DNA from: a virus
Taxonomy: Duplodnaviria > Heunggongvirae > Uroviricota > Caudoviricetes
Strand: one strand, 5' to 3'
Virus record (IMG/VR): IMGVR_UViG_2563366996_000005
Span: 1-21,434 of that record
DNA length: 21,434 nt
Of the stretch, positions 7,365 to 12,460 are shown one piece after another. The position numbers and the translations under genes were made by a program. Below the pieces are notes generated by a model, which searched no databases, was not told the origin of the DNA, and worked only from the letters and a program-made list of their open reading frames with translations. Numbering within the stretch: position 1 is the first letter of the stretch; each line of letters opens with the position of its first letter.

Positions 7365-8761
7365 TTAAATTGCATCTGCAAACTCTGGGGTTTTTCGCTC
7401 AGGTATAATTGATGAGTTGCTGTTGTCACTTTTTTTATTTTCATGATTACGAATAGCCAATGACTCATTAAAGTCTTTTGCGACTGCTGTCTCAATAAAT
7501 TCAATTTCTGAATCAGAGTGTTTTTTAACAGCTTCTTTGATCTCATCCAGAGTAACATAGAAAAACTCTTTTCTACGATTTACAAGATTGACTCTCTTTT
7601 TATCGAAGACATCATGTAGTTTTTTTTCTAATGATGGAGCGTCCTCCGAATAAATCATGGCATGTACATCAAAAATAAAAGGAACAGATGCATCACCGAG
7701 CTCATTTACACGGTCTTGCGGATCAAGACGTCGTGTCATGCCTATTTTATAAACATTCTCCCCAAAAGAACCTATGTTCGAAATAATATAAACATGACCT
7801 TGTTTGGTTTGTTGTGCCATGGATAATGCTCTTTGATGCTTTGATTCAGCCTGCGACAAACTCTGTTCTAGTTCGGCAATGCGATTTTCGAGGCGCTGCT
7901 TCATGTCACCAGTAACTTTTTCCATTTCCTTTCTTGCAGCTTCAATTGCTTTTTTATAACGGCGCTCTTCTGCCTCTGCGTCTTGCATGGCCTTTTCTAT
8001 TTCTCGTTGTGCACGCTCCTCCTCTCTCATTTGTGCCCTTATTTCTGCCTGTTCTTCTTTTTCTTTCTGTTTTTGCTCACGATATTCATGGGTAAGCCAC
8101 AATTCCTCAAGTTTTTTATTGAGGTATTTAGTGTTTATATATATGTGATTTTGCTCGTTTAGTTTATTTATGGCCTCAAATGCCTTTGTGATGCGTTCTT
8201 CCATTTTAGTGATGTTTTTCCACGTGCAATTGCTAATTGCAGCATCACATTCATTATTAAATGCTCTAGTAGTTAGCCTGATATTTCTGTCTGTCATTTT
8301 TTTACCCTCTGCTCGAGAGCCTTCAACAGTCCATTGGGTTGTACAATATACTGCGCCAGAGTGGGTTTTATCCCGCAGCATTAATTTCTGTTCATCCCTG
8401 ATGGATTTTATTTTGTTTTTAAATTGCTCTGAATCTTCAAAATTAAAATGAGGTTCGTAAAATCCTAGTTCGGCTAGCTCAACATCTTCTGAATAAATAG
8501 AAATTTGCCTTACTAGTTTATCATATATTTCTTTCTTCTCTTTATAAGTTCTTCTTAGCTCTTGGATTTGTTTATTGATACCATCCATTTTTTCAATGGT
8601 GTTTGTTAGTTCATTATTGGCATTTTCTTTTACTTTTAGGGATTCTTCTTTTATTATGGAGCATTCTTGCTCTGTTTTCTCAATAAGCTTCTTACATTCT
8701 TCTTCTACATTAAAATAATCTGCAAAGCGAGATTTGTATTCTTCATTTTTTTGATTGCTAT
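7365..8761 (-). pseudogene. 3' portion of an IS1-split gene: coiled-coil region plus C-terminal T5orf172/GIY-YIG-like domain (longest ATG-initiated remnant ORF 7365..8588, 407 aa)
   Basis: Track ORF 7365..8588. Its frame stays open upstream for another 57 sense codons with no start codon until it enters IS1 at 8762. The C-terminal motif GHVYIISNIGSFGENVYKIGMTRRLDPQDRVNELG...PFIFDVHAMIY...LEKKLHDVF...RKEFFYV is T5orf172/GIY-YIG-like by recall. The central region is a long charged coiled coil. Confidence 0.75.
8753..8761. repeat. IS1 target-site duplication, left copy (GATTGCTAT)
   Basis: This 9-bp sequence directly abuts the IS1 end at 8762 and is identical to 9530-9538. Confidence 0.9.
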
Positions 8762-8776
8762 GGTAATGACTCCAAC

Positions 8777-9280
8777 TTATTGATAGTGTTTTATGTTCAG
8801 ATAATGCCCGATGACTTTGTCATGCAGCTCCACCGATTTTGAGAACGACAGCGACTTCCGTCCCAGCCGTGCCAGGTGCTGCCTCAGATTCAGGTTATGC
8901 CGCTCAATTCGCTGCGTATATCGCTTGCTGATTACGTGCAGCTTTCCCTTCAGGCGGGATTCATACAGCGGCCAGCCATCCGTCATCCATATCACCACGT
9001 CAAAGGGTGACAGCAGGCTCATAAGACGCCCCAGCGTCGCCATAGTGCGTTCACCGAATACGTGCGCAACAACCGTCTTCCGGAGCCTGTCATACGCGTA
9101 AAACAGCCAGCGCTGGCGCGATTTAGCCCCGACGTATCCCCACTGTTCGTCCATTTCCGCGCAGACGATGACGTCACTGCCCGGCTGTATGCGCGAGGTT
9201 ACCGACTGCGGCCTGAGTTTTTTAAATGGCGGAAAATCGTGTTGAGGCCAACGCCCATAATGCGGGCGGTTGCCCGGCAT
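8777..9280 (-). CDS. insB: IS1 InsB (transposase catalytic part, made as InsAB' by a -1 frameshift)
   Basis: Track ORF; translation matches recalled IS1 InsB. Confidence 0.9.
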
Positions 9281-9474
9281 CCAACGCCATTCATGGCCAT
9301 ATCAATGATTTTCTGGTGCGTACCGGGTTGAGAAGCGGTGTAAGTGAACTGCAGTTGCCATGTTTTACGGCAGTGAGAGCAGAGATAGCGCTGATGTCCG
9401 GCGGTGCTTTTGCCGTTACGCACCACCCCGTCAGTAGCTGAACAGGAGGGACAGCTGATAGAAACAGAAGCCAC
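9199..9474 (-). CDS. insA: IS1 InsA (transposition repressor / N-terminal part of the transposase)
   Basis: Track ORF; translation [40 protein letters not shown]... matches recalled IS1 InsA. Confidence 0.9.
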
Positions 9475-9529
9475 TGGAGCACCTCAAAAACACCATCATA
9501 CACTAAATCAGTAAGTTGGCAGCATCACC

Positions 9530-9538
9530 GATTGCTAT
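9530..9538. repeat. IS1 target-site duplication, right copy (GATTGCTAT)
   Basis: Identical 9-mer to 8753-8761, directly abutting the other IS1 end. Confidence 0.9.
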
Positions 9539-9644
9539 CACTTAATTCTAATTGTATTTTTTTGATGCGTTTGATTGCAGCTATATAAAGAACAAGAACA
9601 ACCAATAAAAATATGATTGCAAGTAATAGAGGAGTTTGAGTCAT
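9530..9644 (-). pseudogene. 5' portion of the IS1-split gene: start codon plus N-terminal transmembrane anchor
   Basis: Manual minus-strand translation from ATG at 9642-9644 (AAGGAA RBS 8 nt upstream, in-frame stop 5 codons upstream) gives MTQTPLLLAIIFLLVVLVLYIAAIKRIKKIQLELS... Joined across IS1 with one TSD copy removed, it runs in frame into the 3' portion. Confidence 0.7.
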
Positions 9645-9952
9645 TCGTGCTATTCCTTACGGACAATTTAAGACGTTTTGTATTAAATCCTGTTCAATGT
9701 GTATGCGGGTGATTGCTACCGCTTACAATCTTCATAATTATCAGTTAGATAGACTCGCTAGTAAATAATTTCATTTTTTGCAATATTCTTATTGAATATT
9801 TCAATTTATGAAATGAACTCTTTATCCTTTCAAGGTGAAAGGTTTCTTCTTCGGAAATATTTGCTCTCGTGTGACGTATAAAGACCTTTGATTTTCAAAA
9901 ATCAGTAGGGAATAATATAGTTACTGTCGGCCTGAACACCCGGTGGTGGGGT

Positions 9953-10050
9953 TGCGCTAAACGGGGACGTTTATGCGCACACACAATCCAAACTCTCATC
10001 TCCATTCACAGATGCAGAAATGCACCTACGATTTTTTACATTCGGTGTTT
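9953..10050 (+). repeat. Direct repeat R1 (~98 bp, ~90% identical to R2)
   Basis: tgcgctaaacggggacgtttatgcgcacacacaatccaaactctcatctccattcacagatgcagaaatgcacctacgattttttacattcggtgttt aligns base-for-base with 11887-11984, with about 10 mismatches. Confidence 0.85.
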
Positions 10051-10279
10051 TACTTCGACAGCCAGAATTGGGAGTCTCTATTCGTCTGGCGGCTAAAGGT
10101 GATATGGAAATCGTTATGTTTTGGCCTGAGGTAGTTGTAACTGTTGTAGCAGCTATGGATGTGATCATCATGGTGTCCATTTACTGGGGTTGACGACATG
10201 ATTTATCCGGCGCTATATTCTGTGCGTTGCCGCAAAATCGGCACACGGGATTGGCGTCCCGGGATACTACTCAACGCAT

Positions 10280-10300
10280 ACCGCGTTAAGCGGTTTTTTT
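10280..10300 (+). terminator. Candidate intrinsic terminator (short stem)
   Basis: ACCGC-GTTAA-GCGGT followed by seven T. Confidence 0.4.
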
Positions 10301-10456
10301 GTGCGCTAAGCACGGCTATGCCCAAATTATGGTGGGCTGTGTGAGGGCTTCTTCGGAAGCGCCGGGTTTGAGTAGCCGGTTACGCCAACCTTACACAGTT
10401 CACCACCAGTCGATTGGCGTCGTTGGTGGTGATGGTTAACCTGATGAGGTGATACT

Positions 10457-11065
10457 ATGACTACTCAATTAGCATTCCACAAAACGACGTTTACCCCGAT
10501 TTGCCACAATAACAGAATTTGGCTTACTGCCACTGAAGTTGGTTTAGCACTGGAATATGCGGACGATAAAGCAGTTCAGCGCATTTACTCTCGGCACTCA
10601 GATGAATTCACAGATATGATGACAAGGGTGGTCAAAGTGACCACCCCTCGTGGAATGCAGGAGTCTCGAGTATTTAGCCTTCGCGGAGCCCATTTGATCG
10701 CCATGTTTGCTCGTACTCCTGTGGCCAAAGAATTCCGCCGCTGGGTTCTGGATATTCTCGATCGAGAAGTTCAACAATCCCCAATCACAAAACAATTCAC
10801 TGATAACGAACTTTGCACACTCGCCTGGTTATGGCGAGCAAGTGATACGATGTTAACCGCCTGCCAGAACGTTACGCCCCTTCTTCAGGTCGCAGAGCAT
10901 CGCGAAGCAGGTAGATTCACTTCAATCGAACAAGAATATCCTCGGATACTCAACAGGGCGCGAGAAATCCTTGCCAGAGAAACGGCGCATGTAAAATTCC
11001 AACCGTGGCAGGATGATAAGTGGAGTCGTGTGTTACCATATTTCCGTCAGAATCTGTTGCAATAA
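10457..11065 (+). CDS. Bro-N domain protein (antirepressor-like / Rha-like regulator), 202 aa
   Basis: Track ORF. The N-terminal ~100 aa has the Bro-N pattern (…FHKTTFTPICHNNRIWLTATEVGLALEY…RVFSLRGAHLIAMFARTPVAKEFRRWVLDIL) by recall. A terminator follows. Confidence 0.7.
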   Translation: MTTQLAFHKTTFTPICHNNRIWLTATEVGLALEYADDKAVQRIYSRHSDEFTDMMTRVVKVTTPRGMQESRVFSLRGAHLIAMFARTPVAKEFRRWVLDILDREVQQSPITKQFTDNELCTLAWLWRASDTMLTACQNVTPLLQVAEHREAGRFTSIEQEYPRILNRAREILARETAHVKFQPWQDDKWSRVLPYFRQNLLQ

Positions 11066-11085
11066 AGTCACTAGTTAGAAATACT

Positions 11086-11125
11086 GCCAGCATTCTGCGA
11101 TGACGGAAGTGCTGGCATTTTTTTT
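11086..11125 (+). terminator. Intrinsic terminator after the Bro-N gene
   Basis: GCCAGCA-(17 nt loop)-TGCTGGC followed by ATTTTTTTT. Confidence 0.5.
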
Positions 11126-11300
11126 GGTAATGTGCGAGTCCATTTCATAAAATACGGGTACTGGAACTGGACGATATAATCTAAAAGATACCATTATCAG
11201 TAGCATTAAAATCGCTATGTGCCGATACGGATATAAATTATATTGATTGTTCACATACCTTATTGGATATTACTGAGGGGTGTTTATATAAGGTGTAACG

Positions 11301-11810
11301 ATGATGTGGAACTTTGACAGTGCCGACTTAAGTGCAATAGCAGCAGGCATTTCTGCGTTTGGCACATTAGCCGCAGCGGGGTCGGCGCTTGCAAGTTGGT
11401 GCACGTCAAAAAAAGCGCTGCAGCTACAAAATAGAGTTTACCTTTATGAGTCTTTAAAGGCTTGCGCTGAGAGAGCCAATTCATCAGCTAAAGATAAGCG
11501 CGGATCTGAATGGAGCGTTAATGATGCAGCGGATATCATCAGGTGCCTAGTACGGGCGATGGAGCTCATCAAGCAGGATAGCCAGCAGAAAGAAGGTAAT
11601 CAGGCATTAATGTTGAAACAGTACTTTGTTAATCTGCTAATAATGGAACTGTACGAGGAAGTTCATAACGGTGATGCGGCTGATTCTGTTTTTAAAAGTA
11701 CGGAACCTACACAAGTACTTGATAACTTATGGAGCAAATGGCAGGAGGCTATAGCTTTTTTTGATATTTGGAATTACCCAGTTGCGACTGAGGAAGACTT
11801 GGCAGACTAA
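11301..11810 (+). CDS. Hypothetical 169-aa protein with an N-terminal hydrophobic segment
   Basis: Track ORF. It is preceded by ~170 bp of AT-rich sequence and a GAGGGG RBS-like element. The N-terminus LSAIAAGISAFGTLAAAGSALASW is hydrophobic. I recognise no family. Confidence 0.65.
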   Translation: MMWNFDSADLSAIAAGISAFGTLAAAGSALASWCTSKKALQLQNRVYLYESLKACAERANSSAKDKRGSEWSVNDAADIIRCLVRAMELIKQDSQQKEGNQALMLKQYFVNLLIMELYEEVHNGDAADSVFKSTEPTQVLDNLWSKWQEAIAFFDIWNYPVATEEDLAD

Positions 11811-11886
11811 TTTTCAGCACATTTGATTTCCAATAATCAACCAGCCATAATCATGCCATTGGAGCTTGAACAACTCCGGTGACTTC

Positions 11887-11984
11887 TGCGCTAAACGGGG
11901 ACGTTTATGCGCACATACAATCCAAACTCTCTTCTCCCTTCACAGATGCAGAGATGCACCTGCGATTTTTTGCATCCAGCGTTT
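11887..11984 (+). repeat. Direct repeat R2 (~98 bp), immediately upstream of ninB
   Basis: See R1. Each copy begins a short ORF (R1 9973..10134, R2 11907..12008) with a conserved N-terminus MRT(H/Y)NPNS(H/L)L(H/P)SQMQ(K/R)CT(Y/C)DFLH. Confidence 0.85.
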
Positions 11985-12004
11985 GACCTCTGCGGAGGTG
12001 AAGC

Positions 12005-12460
12005 GTGAACCTCCCACAAGACGGCATCAAATTGCATCGTGGTAACTTCACCGCTATCGGCCAGCAGATCCAGCCTTATCTGGAGGAAGGCAAATGCTTT
12101 CGCATGGTGCTTAAACCGTGGCGTGAGAAACGCAGTCTTTCCCAGAATGCACTCAGCCACATGTGGTACAGCGAAATCAGTGAATACCTCATCAGCAGGG
12201 GTAAAACGTTCGCCACTCCAGCTTGGGTAAAAGATGCTCTCAAACACACATATCTCGGTTATGAAACCAAAGACCTGGTTGATGTCGTAACCGGTGAGAT
12301 CACCACTATCCAGTCGTTACGCCATACCTCCGATCTTGATACCGGAGAGATGTATATCTTCCTGTGTAAGGTTGAAGCCTGGGCGGTGAATATTGGCTGC
12401 CACCTGACTATTCCGCAGAGCTGCGAGTTCCAGCTGCTGCGCGACAAGCAGGAGGCGTAA
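12005..12460 (+). CDS. ninB: NinB-like recombination protein (lambda Orf family), 151 aa, GTG start
   Basis: Track ORF. Family assigned by recall from similarity to lambda NinB (for example around [16 protein letters not shown]) and by its position at the start of the nin region. Confidence 0.65.

Follow-up and report, generated by a model that had tools for sequence, protein, structure and literature searches.

A duplicated ninB leader brackets an antirepressor module and probably serves as a homology patch for module exchange in a lambda-like phage

The direct repeat and its leader

The DNA analysed here, which we call the window, comprises positions 1 to 21,434 (21,434 nucleotides) of the IMG/VR virus record IMGVR_UViG_2563366996_000005, assigned to the Caudoviricetes. 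Our subject is a direct repeat within it which is the best-matching core of a leader of about 175 nt that precedes the ninB (orf/ybcN) operon. A repeat search of the whole window returned a single direct-repeat family, consisting of copy A (9953-10056) and copy B (11887-11990), each 104 nt long and ungapped, with starts 1934 nt apart. The copies match at 93 of 104 positions (89%) and differ at 11, and their longest perfect block is the first 29 nt of the unit. An initial annotation had described same-orientation repeats of about 98 bp and about 90% identity, and these are real, as its copies fall inside the 104-nt units. Beyond that repeat, the leader homology begins at about 9876 for copy A and about 11819 for copy B, with roughly 80% identity in the left part of copy A. 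A match of this quality would arise by chance somewhere in the 21-kb window with a probability of about 5e-35, and the two-copy arrangement is also present in an independently sequenced complete phage genome, in 112 complete Escherichia coli genomes and in several IMG/VR contigs. On these grounds we exclude chance similarity and an assembly artefact, and the probability that we would leave to them is negligible.

The features of the two leader copies, including upstream open reading frames (uORFs), Shine-Dalgarno (SD) sequences and hairpins 1 to 4 (H1 to H4), are as follows:

9888..9916, + strand: promoter-like site of leader copy A, TTGATT-17-AATAAT (promoter scan; position and hexamers as in the -35/-10 annotated in phage 82)
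9921..9949, + strand: H1 of copy A, a stem with several G.U pairs and the loop CCUGAACAC (sequence reading, family covariation)
9953..10056, + strand: direct repeat copy A, core of the leader (repeat search, alignment)
9954..9978, + strand: H2 of copy A, GCGC-UAAACG-GGGA-CGUUUA-U-GCGC, whose loop contains the SD and whose 3' arm includes the AUG (sequence variants)
9973..10134, + strand: copy-A uORF of 53 codons, the first 28 ylcH-like, then diverging and overlapping the start of a hydrophobic open reading frame (ORF)
11823..11851, + strand: promoter-like site of leader copy B, TTGATT-17-CATAAT (promoter scan, phage 82 comparison)
11855..11883, + strand: H1 of copy B, with CUUGAACAA as its loop in place of the usual CCUGAACAA (sequence reading, family covariation)
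11887..11990, + strand: direct repeat copy B (repeat search, alignment)
11888..11912, + strand: H2 of copy B
11907..12008, + strand: uORF of copy B, a ylcH/orf33 homologue of 33 codons whose stop overlaps the ninB start (GTGA, 12005-12008)
11943..11962 (10009-10028 in copy A), + strand: H3 inside the uORF, CAGAUGCA-GAGA-UGCACCUG followed by a U-run
11979..12006, + strand: H4, which pairs the ninB SD (GGAGG, 11994-11998) and the first two bases of the GTG start
12005..12460, + strand: ninB/orf, a YbcN-type recombination mediator (domain and PHROG matches)

Each copy contains the ATG that had been pointed out (9973 in A, 11907 in B), but the number of codons common to both is 28, not about 24. 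The second copy does run into the start of ninB, as proposed, through the GTGA that ends its ORF at the ninB GTG at 12005. What had been called a duplicated gene start is thus the 5' leader together with codons 1-28 of the uORF (ylcH/orf33) in front of ninB. Copy B would perform the normal job of a leader in front of ninB, and copy A is a leader cut off after codon 28. Copy A heads an inserted module of 1.9 kb, made up of the hydrophobic ORF, an IsrK/C4-antirepressor operon and an accessory slot, and this extra copy would mark the joint at which the antirepressor module and its swappable gene recombined in.

Comparative evidence for module exchange

Clustering of the 500-nt flanks of 207 leaders gave 90 sequence clusters upstream and 13 downstream, which bears out the earlier suggestion of a module-boundary sequence. 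Because the leader is conserved and the DNA upstream of it is hypervariable, it would serve as a patch of homology at which phages and prophages exchange the modules to its left. Two copies were present in 9 of the 124 sources carrying the 82-type unit, and the left flank (PD-lambda-1 type or other) and the module (present or absent) are found in all four possible pairings. In seven IMG/VR viral loci the left flank of the window is joined to a single unit and ninB, which is the recombinant predicted from the two copies, and 46 complete E. coli genomes contain the synthetic A x B junction as one uninterrupted match of 97-99% identity. One empty-site allele (locus L021) follows the window collinearly to the left and to the right, with one unit and the module absent, and at another locus (L092) the isrK/C4-ant operon directly follows ren, with no leader copy in front of it.

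At the diagnostic positions that separate A-type from B-type sequence, the change from one type to the other falls near unit position 30, 52 or 86, depending on the locus, as homologous recombination would give. The flank switch maps to the first 29 nt of the unit, a block that is above the minimal pairing segment of Red-beta (23-27 bp) and just below that of RecA (31-34 bp; PMC3945230). Phage PhiR26_1, which is 99.7% identical and carries the two-copy arrangement, encodes exo/bet/gam. The search of related genomes that the initial annotation had recommended turned up differing content between the two copies, many single-copy loci and the predicted recombinant, and its idea of cassette gain or loss by homologous recombination gains support from genome comparison.

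From these comparisons we consider it probable that the leader was duplicated and an antirepressor module recombined in, with the leader acting as a homology patch for lambdoid module exchange. Homologous recombination, Red- or RecA-mediated, would have made the alleles described here, each event being a putative gain or loss. Two copies in one genome could likewise recombine with each other, deleting the 1.9-kb block.

Structure of the ninB leader

The majority of leader copies were obtained by searches with DNA patterns in which part of the sequence is fixed; 17 loci were retrieved through the NinB protein alone, with one genome per species. As reconstructed from these copies, a normal leader would comprise a sigma-70-like promoter site, H1, H2, the uORF, H4 and a start-stop overlap with ninB. 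Of 109 distinct leaders, 87 retain the promoter hexamers; in the others the corresponding position is mostly taken by CATACT or an extended -10 (TGTTATAAT), and we infer that these promoter-like sites are active. In most variants a TGAT-N8/9-ATCA palindrome lies over the -35 (11823-11840 and 9888-9905 in the window; also in L001 and L124-L136), and its half-sites resemble those of FNR, but the spacing is wrong.

H1 has a stem of 10 bp and a loop of 9 nt. Its pairs were counted in a gap-free alignment of 60 distinct sequences anchored on the loop only, after a MAFFT alignment had been rejected because it put the hairpins out of register. Pairing was found in 93.5% of cells, compared with 60% in shuffles and 28-50% when the partners were slid, and double changes occur at 9 of the 10 pairs. 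As the 92 G.U pairs outnumber the 10 A.C pairs, it is the + strand RNA that would fold. The loop core UGARC is fixed, while 38 of 246 leaders, including copy B here, depart from the commonest form, CUGARCA; the copy-B variant CUUGAACAA (window 11866, common form CCUGAACAA) is shared by several other loci, and the fixed core is therefore UGARC rather than CUGARCA. We also considered H1 as a counterpart of lambda boxB and rejected it, as there is no boxB-like sequence in the window and the pairing of the H1 loop is unlike that of boxB.

H2 occurs in nine stem variants, all of which pair; its GGGA loop, the SD of the uORF, is fixed, and the start codon lies in the 3' arm. H1 and H2 are present in both copies in the window, and in each the loop of H2 contains the SD and its stem the AUG. 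Across leaders the uORF keeps an uninterrupted length of 31-34 codons while residues outside the core SQMQKCTCDFLH vary freely, and the Phe/Leu codons of this core change synonymously between leaders. In nearly all leaders the uORF stop overlaps the downstream start (offset -1, ATGA or GTGA), before YbcN-type and lambda-type NinB alike. Copy B has a uORF within this length range and the overlap with ninB, while the copy-A uORF runs to 53 codons and ninB is not downstream of it. H3 is nearly invariant in its nucleotides across otherwise diverged leaders, and its GNRA loop reads GAAA, or GAGA in copy B. The Siccibacter leader (L135) shows an A-U to U-A swap in H3 that keeps the pair and alters two amino acids, and in Phytobacter (L139) H3 is missing and the uORF and the overlap are retained. 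H4 pairs the ninB SD in essentially all 49 variants of the 3' end.

The start-stop overlap would couple translation of ninB to that of the uORF, and H4 would mask the ninB ribosome-binding site. This arrangement suggests that ninB translation may depend on translation of the uORF, which would itself depend on the opening of H2. One can go further and picture a widely conserved cis-regulatory RNA leader, so far undescribed, that controls Orf/NinB through a palindrome-bearing promoter, the UGARC loop of H1 as a factor-binding site, the start-sequestering H2, the GNRA hairpin H3 and uORF-dependent unmasking, in which case the duplication would place the antirepressor and accessory module under the same signal. 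We put this forward tentatively, as a possibility whose odds are somewhat less than even. A comparison of the leader (9880-10060 and 11815-12010) with the covariance models of Rfam 15 gave no match even at E up to 5, and the small peptides had no match in NCBIfam.

Distribution of the leader

The ORF of copy B corresponds to orf33 of phage 82 (X92588), which is annotated upstream of orf151 (ninB). The phage 82 annotation also gives a putative -35/-10 there, together with an inverted repeat called a "possible regulator-binding site". The same ORF is ylcH (b4588) of the DLP12 prophage of E. coli K-12 (MG1655), where it overlaps ybcN by 4 nt. Among the NinB-anchored loci, the leader precedes ninB in prophages of Escherichia, Enterobacter, Citrobacter, Huaxiibacter, Siccibacter and Phytobacter, and it is absent from this position in Pantoea and Rosenbergiella. 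It is also found in phi80 (where part of it is annotated as IR4), HK225 and HK639, and in 2893 of 5426 complete E. coli genomes, usually as a single copy. In HK639 (L125), L235-L260 and other viral loci, the leader with its overlapping uORF stands before a lambda-type NinB (MKQ... proteins) that is distant from the YbcN type. Its presence before distantly related NinB types means that the leader has been either retained or exchanged between members of the Orf family.

For ylcH, the only literature that we found was a codon-bias table and one transcriptome table, and we found no relevant literature for phi80 IR4. RNA of ylcH has been detected in K-12, with a 2-fold increase under microaerobic growth (PMC8910356).

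The module between the copies

The Bro-N gene and the gene for a 169-aa protein that the initial annotation placed between the repeats are there (10457-11065 and 11301-11810). Its view of the interval as a 1.8-kb cargo module holds for a bracketed block, but the block is composite: only the 3' slot varies, and the middle is a known IsrK/C4-antirepressor operon. The module contains the following features:

10104..10193, + strand: 29-codon hydrophobic ORF (MEIVMFWPEVVVTVVAAMDVIIMVSIYWG) with an AAGGTGA SD in front, matching the C-terminal half of phrog_4612; coding status uncertain
10190..10219, + strand: promoter-like site of the isrK operon, TTGACG-18-TATATT (scan, 10/12 matches)
10228..10300, + strand: IsrK-like small RNA (a1/b1 region) with a terminator (Rfam RF01394, 58.7 bits against a threshold of 50)
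10325..10410, + strand: C4 antisense RNA (Rfam RF01695, 74.8 bits against a threshold of 45)
10457..11065, + strand: antirepressor gene (ant), Bro-N and P22_AR_C domains (Pfam; PHROG anti-repressor families)
11085..11125, + strand: terminator-like hairpin and U-run after ant, TGCCAGCA...TGCTGGCA and then TTTTTTTT (sequence reading)
11301..11810, + strand: orf169, cargo of the variable slot, encoding a 169-aa protein (phrog_1779, unknown)

The hydrophobic ORF always comes right after the first leader copy, and its frame survives a 6-nt indel. Its stop falls within the -35 of the isrK promoter-like site, and this site is also where homology to leader-less versions of the operon (L092) begins. 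The ORF could encode a small membrane peptide or be non-coding. In the phage collection, the segment that follows copy A (10045-10200) is carried only by PhiR26_1 and IdasGreatGrand.

The isrK region also scores 39.6 bits with RF03163 (c4-a1b1), which is below the gathering threshold. The loops of C4 are complementary, through a 7-mer and an 8-mer, to 10414-10420 and to 10461-10468, the latter being codons 2-4 of ant. A 46-codon ORF with a TTG start (10299-10439) overlaps C4 and may correspond to orf45 of Gifsy-1. Judged by these parts, the middle of the module is an IsrK/C4-antirepressor operon of a known kind, which would be transcribed from its own promoter-like site.

All two-copy sources share the unit, the hydrophobic ORF, isrK/C4 and ant, and their contents differ after ant. 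The slot is occupied by orf169, by genes for proteins of 66, 81 (DNA polymerase III theta) and 195 aa, by a gene for a 241-aa protein on the opposite strand, or by a HEPN protein with a 133-aa partner. The HEPN-type slot (L098, L060, L018 and L056) contains a 138-aa protein with a weak PADLOC match to PDC-M28A and, next to it, an overlapping ORF of 133 aa; the two are reminiscent of a HEPN/antitoxin pair or of a candidate defence system. In Perceval, which is of the alpha/beta-hydrolase type, a supposed second leader copy proved to be absent, as the extra BLAST piece is a remnant of ant.

A promoter-like site, TTGGTA-18-TAAAAT, and a terminator-like hairpin precede orf169 (11085-11153). Its protein consists of an N-terminal hydrophobic helix and an all-alpha domain, has 14 homologues, all unnamed, and gave no match in Pfam, NCBIfam or PADLOC. 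An AlphaFold2 model (predicted local distance difference test score, pLDDT, 70.7) was compared by Foldseek with PDB and BFVD, and no match had an E value below 0.1; a few chains of HEPN toxins stood among the non-significant matches, and we did not use them. To us, orf169 looks like a moron.

Alternative explanations

The second copy might have been kept for its function, namely to express the hydrophobic ORF, and the antirepressor operon by read-through, under ninB-like control. Such a role is compatible with the leader duplication and would shift the weight to regulation. It would account for the promoter hexamers, H1 and H2 being intact in every first copy, and for the segment 10057-10189 never being found without a leader copy in front, and the copy-A uORF ends just past the start of the SD-preceded hydrophobic ORF, mimicking the overlap of the uORF with ninB. 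However, the copy-A uORF is broken in some relatives, by a premature TAG in L060 and L018 and by a frameshift in L022. As for the hydrophobic ORF, its codon 7 is a TAG in L056 and L044, and its substitutions show no third-position bias in a hand count. The IsrK/C4-ant operon, moreover, has its own strong promoter-like site and occurs leader-less after ren (L092). We regard retention for function as unlikely, if less so than the explanations that follow.

The chief role of the unit could also be to terminate or attenuate transcription in the nin region, in the manner of tR2, with the duplication providing two terminators. The lambda nin region holds terminators, and our scan flags 11947-11964 with ATTTTTT in copy B as terminator-like. 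Yet the stem is short, the U-run is not conserved (UUUUUU, UUUUCU, UUUCCU and AUUCUUU occur) and its substitutions are mostly synonymous for Phe/Leu, and the Phytobacter leader (L139) has the uORF and the overlap without the hairpin, all of which makes a terminator improbable. Still harder to accept is a site-specific recombination cassette with a dedicated recombinase, the repeats being its attachment-type sites, which we hold to be very improbable. Direct repeats do bracket a discrete block, and ybcK, a serine recombinase gene, occupies the same inter-module slot in DLP12 and Perceval; against this, no recombinase gene was found in or beside the module, the switch points are varied rather than confined to one core, the two copies differ at the 11 positions mentioned above, and a single unit stands before ninB in thousands of cassette-free genomes.

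Several points weigh against the reading that we favour, in which the leader was duplicated and serves as a patch for homologous exchange. Recombination is read from comparisons of genomes. At 1-3% divergence from the window, the empty-site alleles are not recent derivatives of it, and they may represent the ancestral state instead of deletions. For the first duplication, homologous recombination alone is insufficient, as it needs at least one illegitimate joint, or an ancestor with the leader before another gene. The invariance of the anchors (the H2 stem in one scan, the uORF core in the other) is partly by construction, and the unbiased leader set consists of the 17 NinB-anchored loci only. 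Finally, for rusA, which lies downstream in DLP12, an inserted promoter is reported to be necessary if expression is to be adequate (PMC4118853).

Relation to known systems

The modular theory of Susskind and Botstein and the work of Clark et al. (2001) on HK620 are said to describe conserved boundary (linker) sequences at lambdoid module junctions. Exchange at such short conserved sequences in lambdoid phages is an established idea (PMC3029335, PMC3945230), and relaxed Rad52-type recombination has been reported by De Paepe et al. 2014 (PMC3945230). The unit studied here is like these boundary sequences in being a short conserved patch between a variable and a constant module, with switch points inside it, identity blocks near the Red-beta minimum, and presence and absence alleles that share their flanks. 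Unlike a linker, the boundary here would not be neutral, as it appears to be a leader with a promoter-like site, covarying hairpins and a coupled uORF, and it occurs twice in one genome, which makes an intramolecular deletion possible.

Copy B is a full homologue of ylcH (b4588)/orf33, with 33 codons, the same position and the 4-nt overlap with ybcN/orf151. Copy A, in contrast, shares the upstream 20 nt and 28 codons only, after which the sequence is unrelated and ninB is not next.

The isrK-orf45-anrP operon has been characterised in Salmonella Gifsy-1, where RNA-controlled translation of ant and antirepressor activity were shown (PMC4825925). Like that operon and the c4-ant of P1/P7 immI, the one in the window has isrK and C4 above the Rfam gathering thresholds with an antirepressor gene next, C4 loops complementary to the initiation region of ant, and a promoter-like site directly upstream of isrK. 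It differs in position, lying between ren/PD-lambda-1 and ninB while that of Gifsy-1 is downstream of Q, and in being preceded by a copy of the ninB leader and followed by a variable accessory slot.

The ninB leader also has the marks of translationally coupled leader peptides and uORFs, as its stop overlaps the next start, the downstream SD is paired in the 3' end of the uORF, and ORF length and frame are conserved while most residues vary. Unlike those systems, it adds a 5' hairpin with a fixed loop and an internal GNRA hairpin that is invariant in its nucleotides, features read here from comparison of sequences. While ylcH/orf33 and the IsrK/C4-ant operon are already annotated or characterised, the structured ninB leader seems to be undescribed.

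Neighbouring features

To the left of copy A, the PD-lambda-1 defence gene (minus strand, ~7365-9644) is broken by a 768-bp IS1 at 8762-9529, with a 9-bp target duplication (GATTGCTAT). Removal of IS1 and one duplicate restores an ORF of 500 aa, and the gene is intact in PhiR26_1 and in the empty-site loci; RefSeq names its relatives "SNIPE associated domain-containing protein". At 643-701 on the minus strand, Rfam Lambda_thermo, the cIII thermoregulator, matches with 88.5 bits, which marks the early-left region as lambda-like.

Significance

The locus is an ordinary but clean instance of module shuffling in a lambda-like phage, and the structured leader is the more interesting by-product. It offers a natural case of a leader that would double as a homology patch for module exchange, for which public genomes provide all the intermediate alleles: loci with one copy, loci with two copies and one of four different cargos, and the recombinant that the two copies predict. 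The accessory slot directly upstream of ninB, with its HEPN protein, its homologue of DNA polymerase III theta and its unknown proteins, lies next to the PD-lambda-1 defence gene and may be worth mining. For E. coli K-12, ylcH, an uncharacterised gene of 33 codons, would belong to a structured leader that is conserved across several genera, and this placement makes the control of expression of the Orf/NinB recombination mediator testable.

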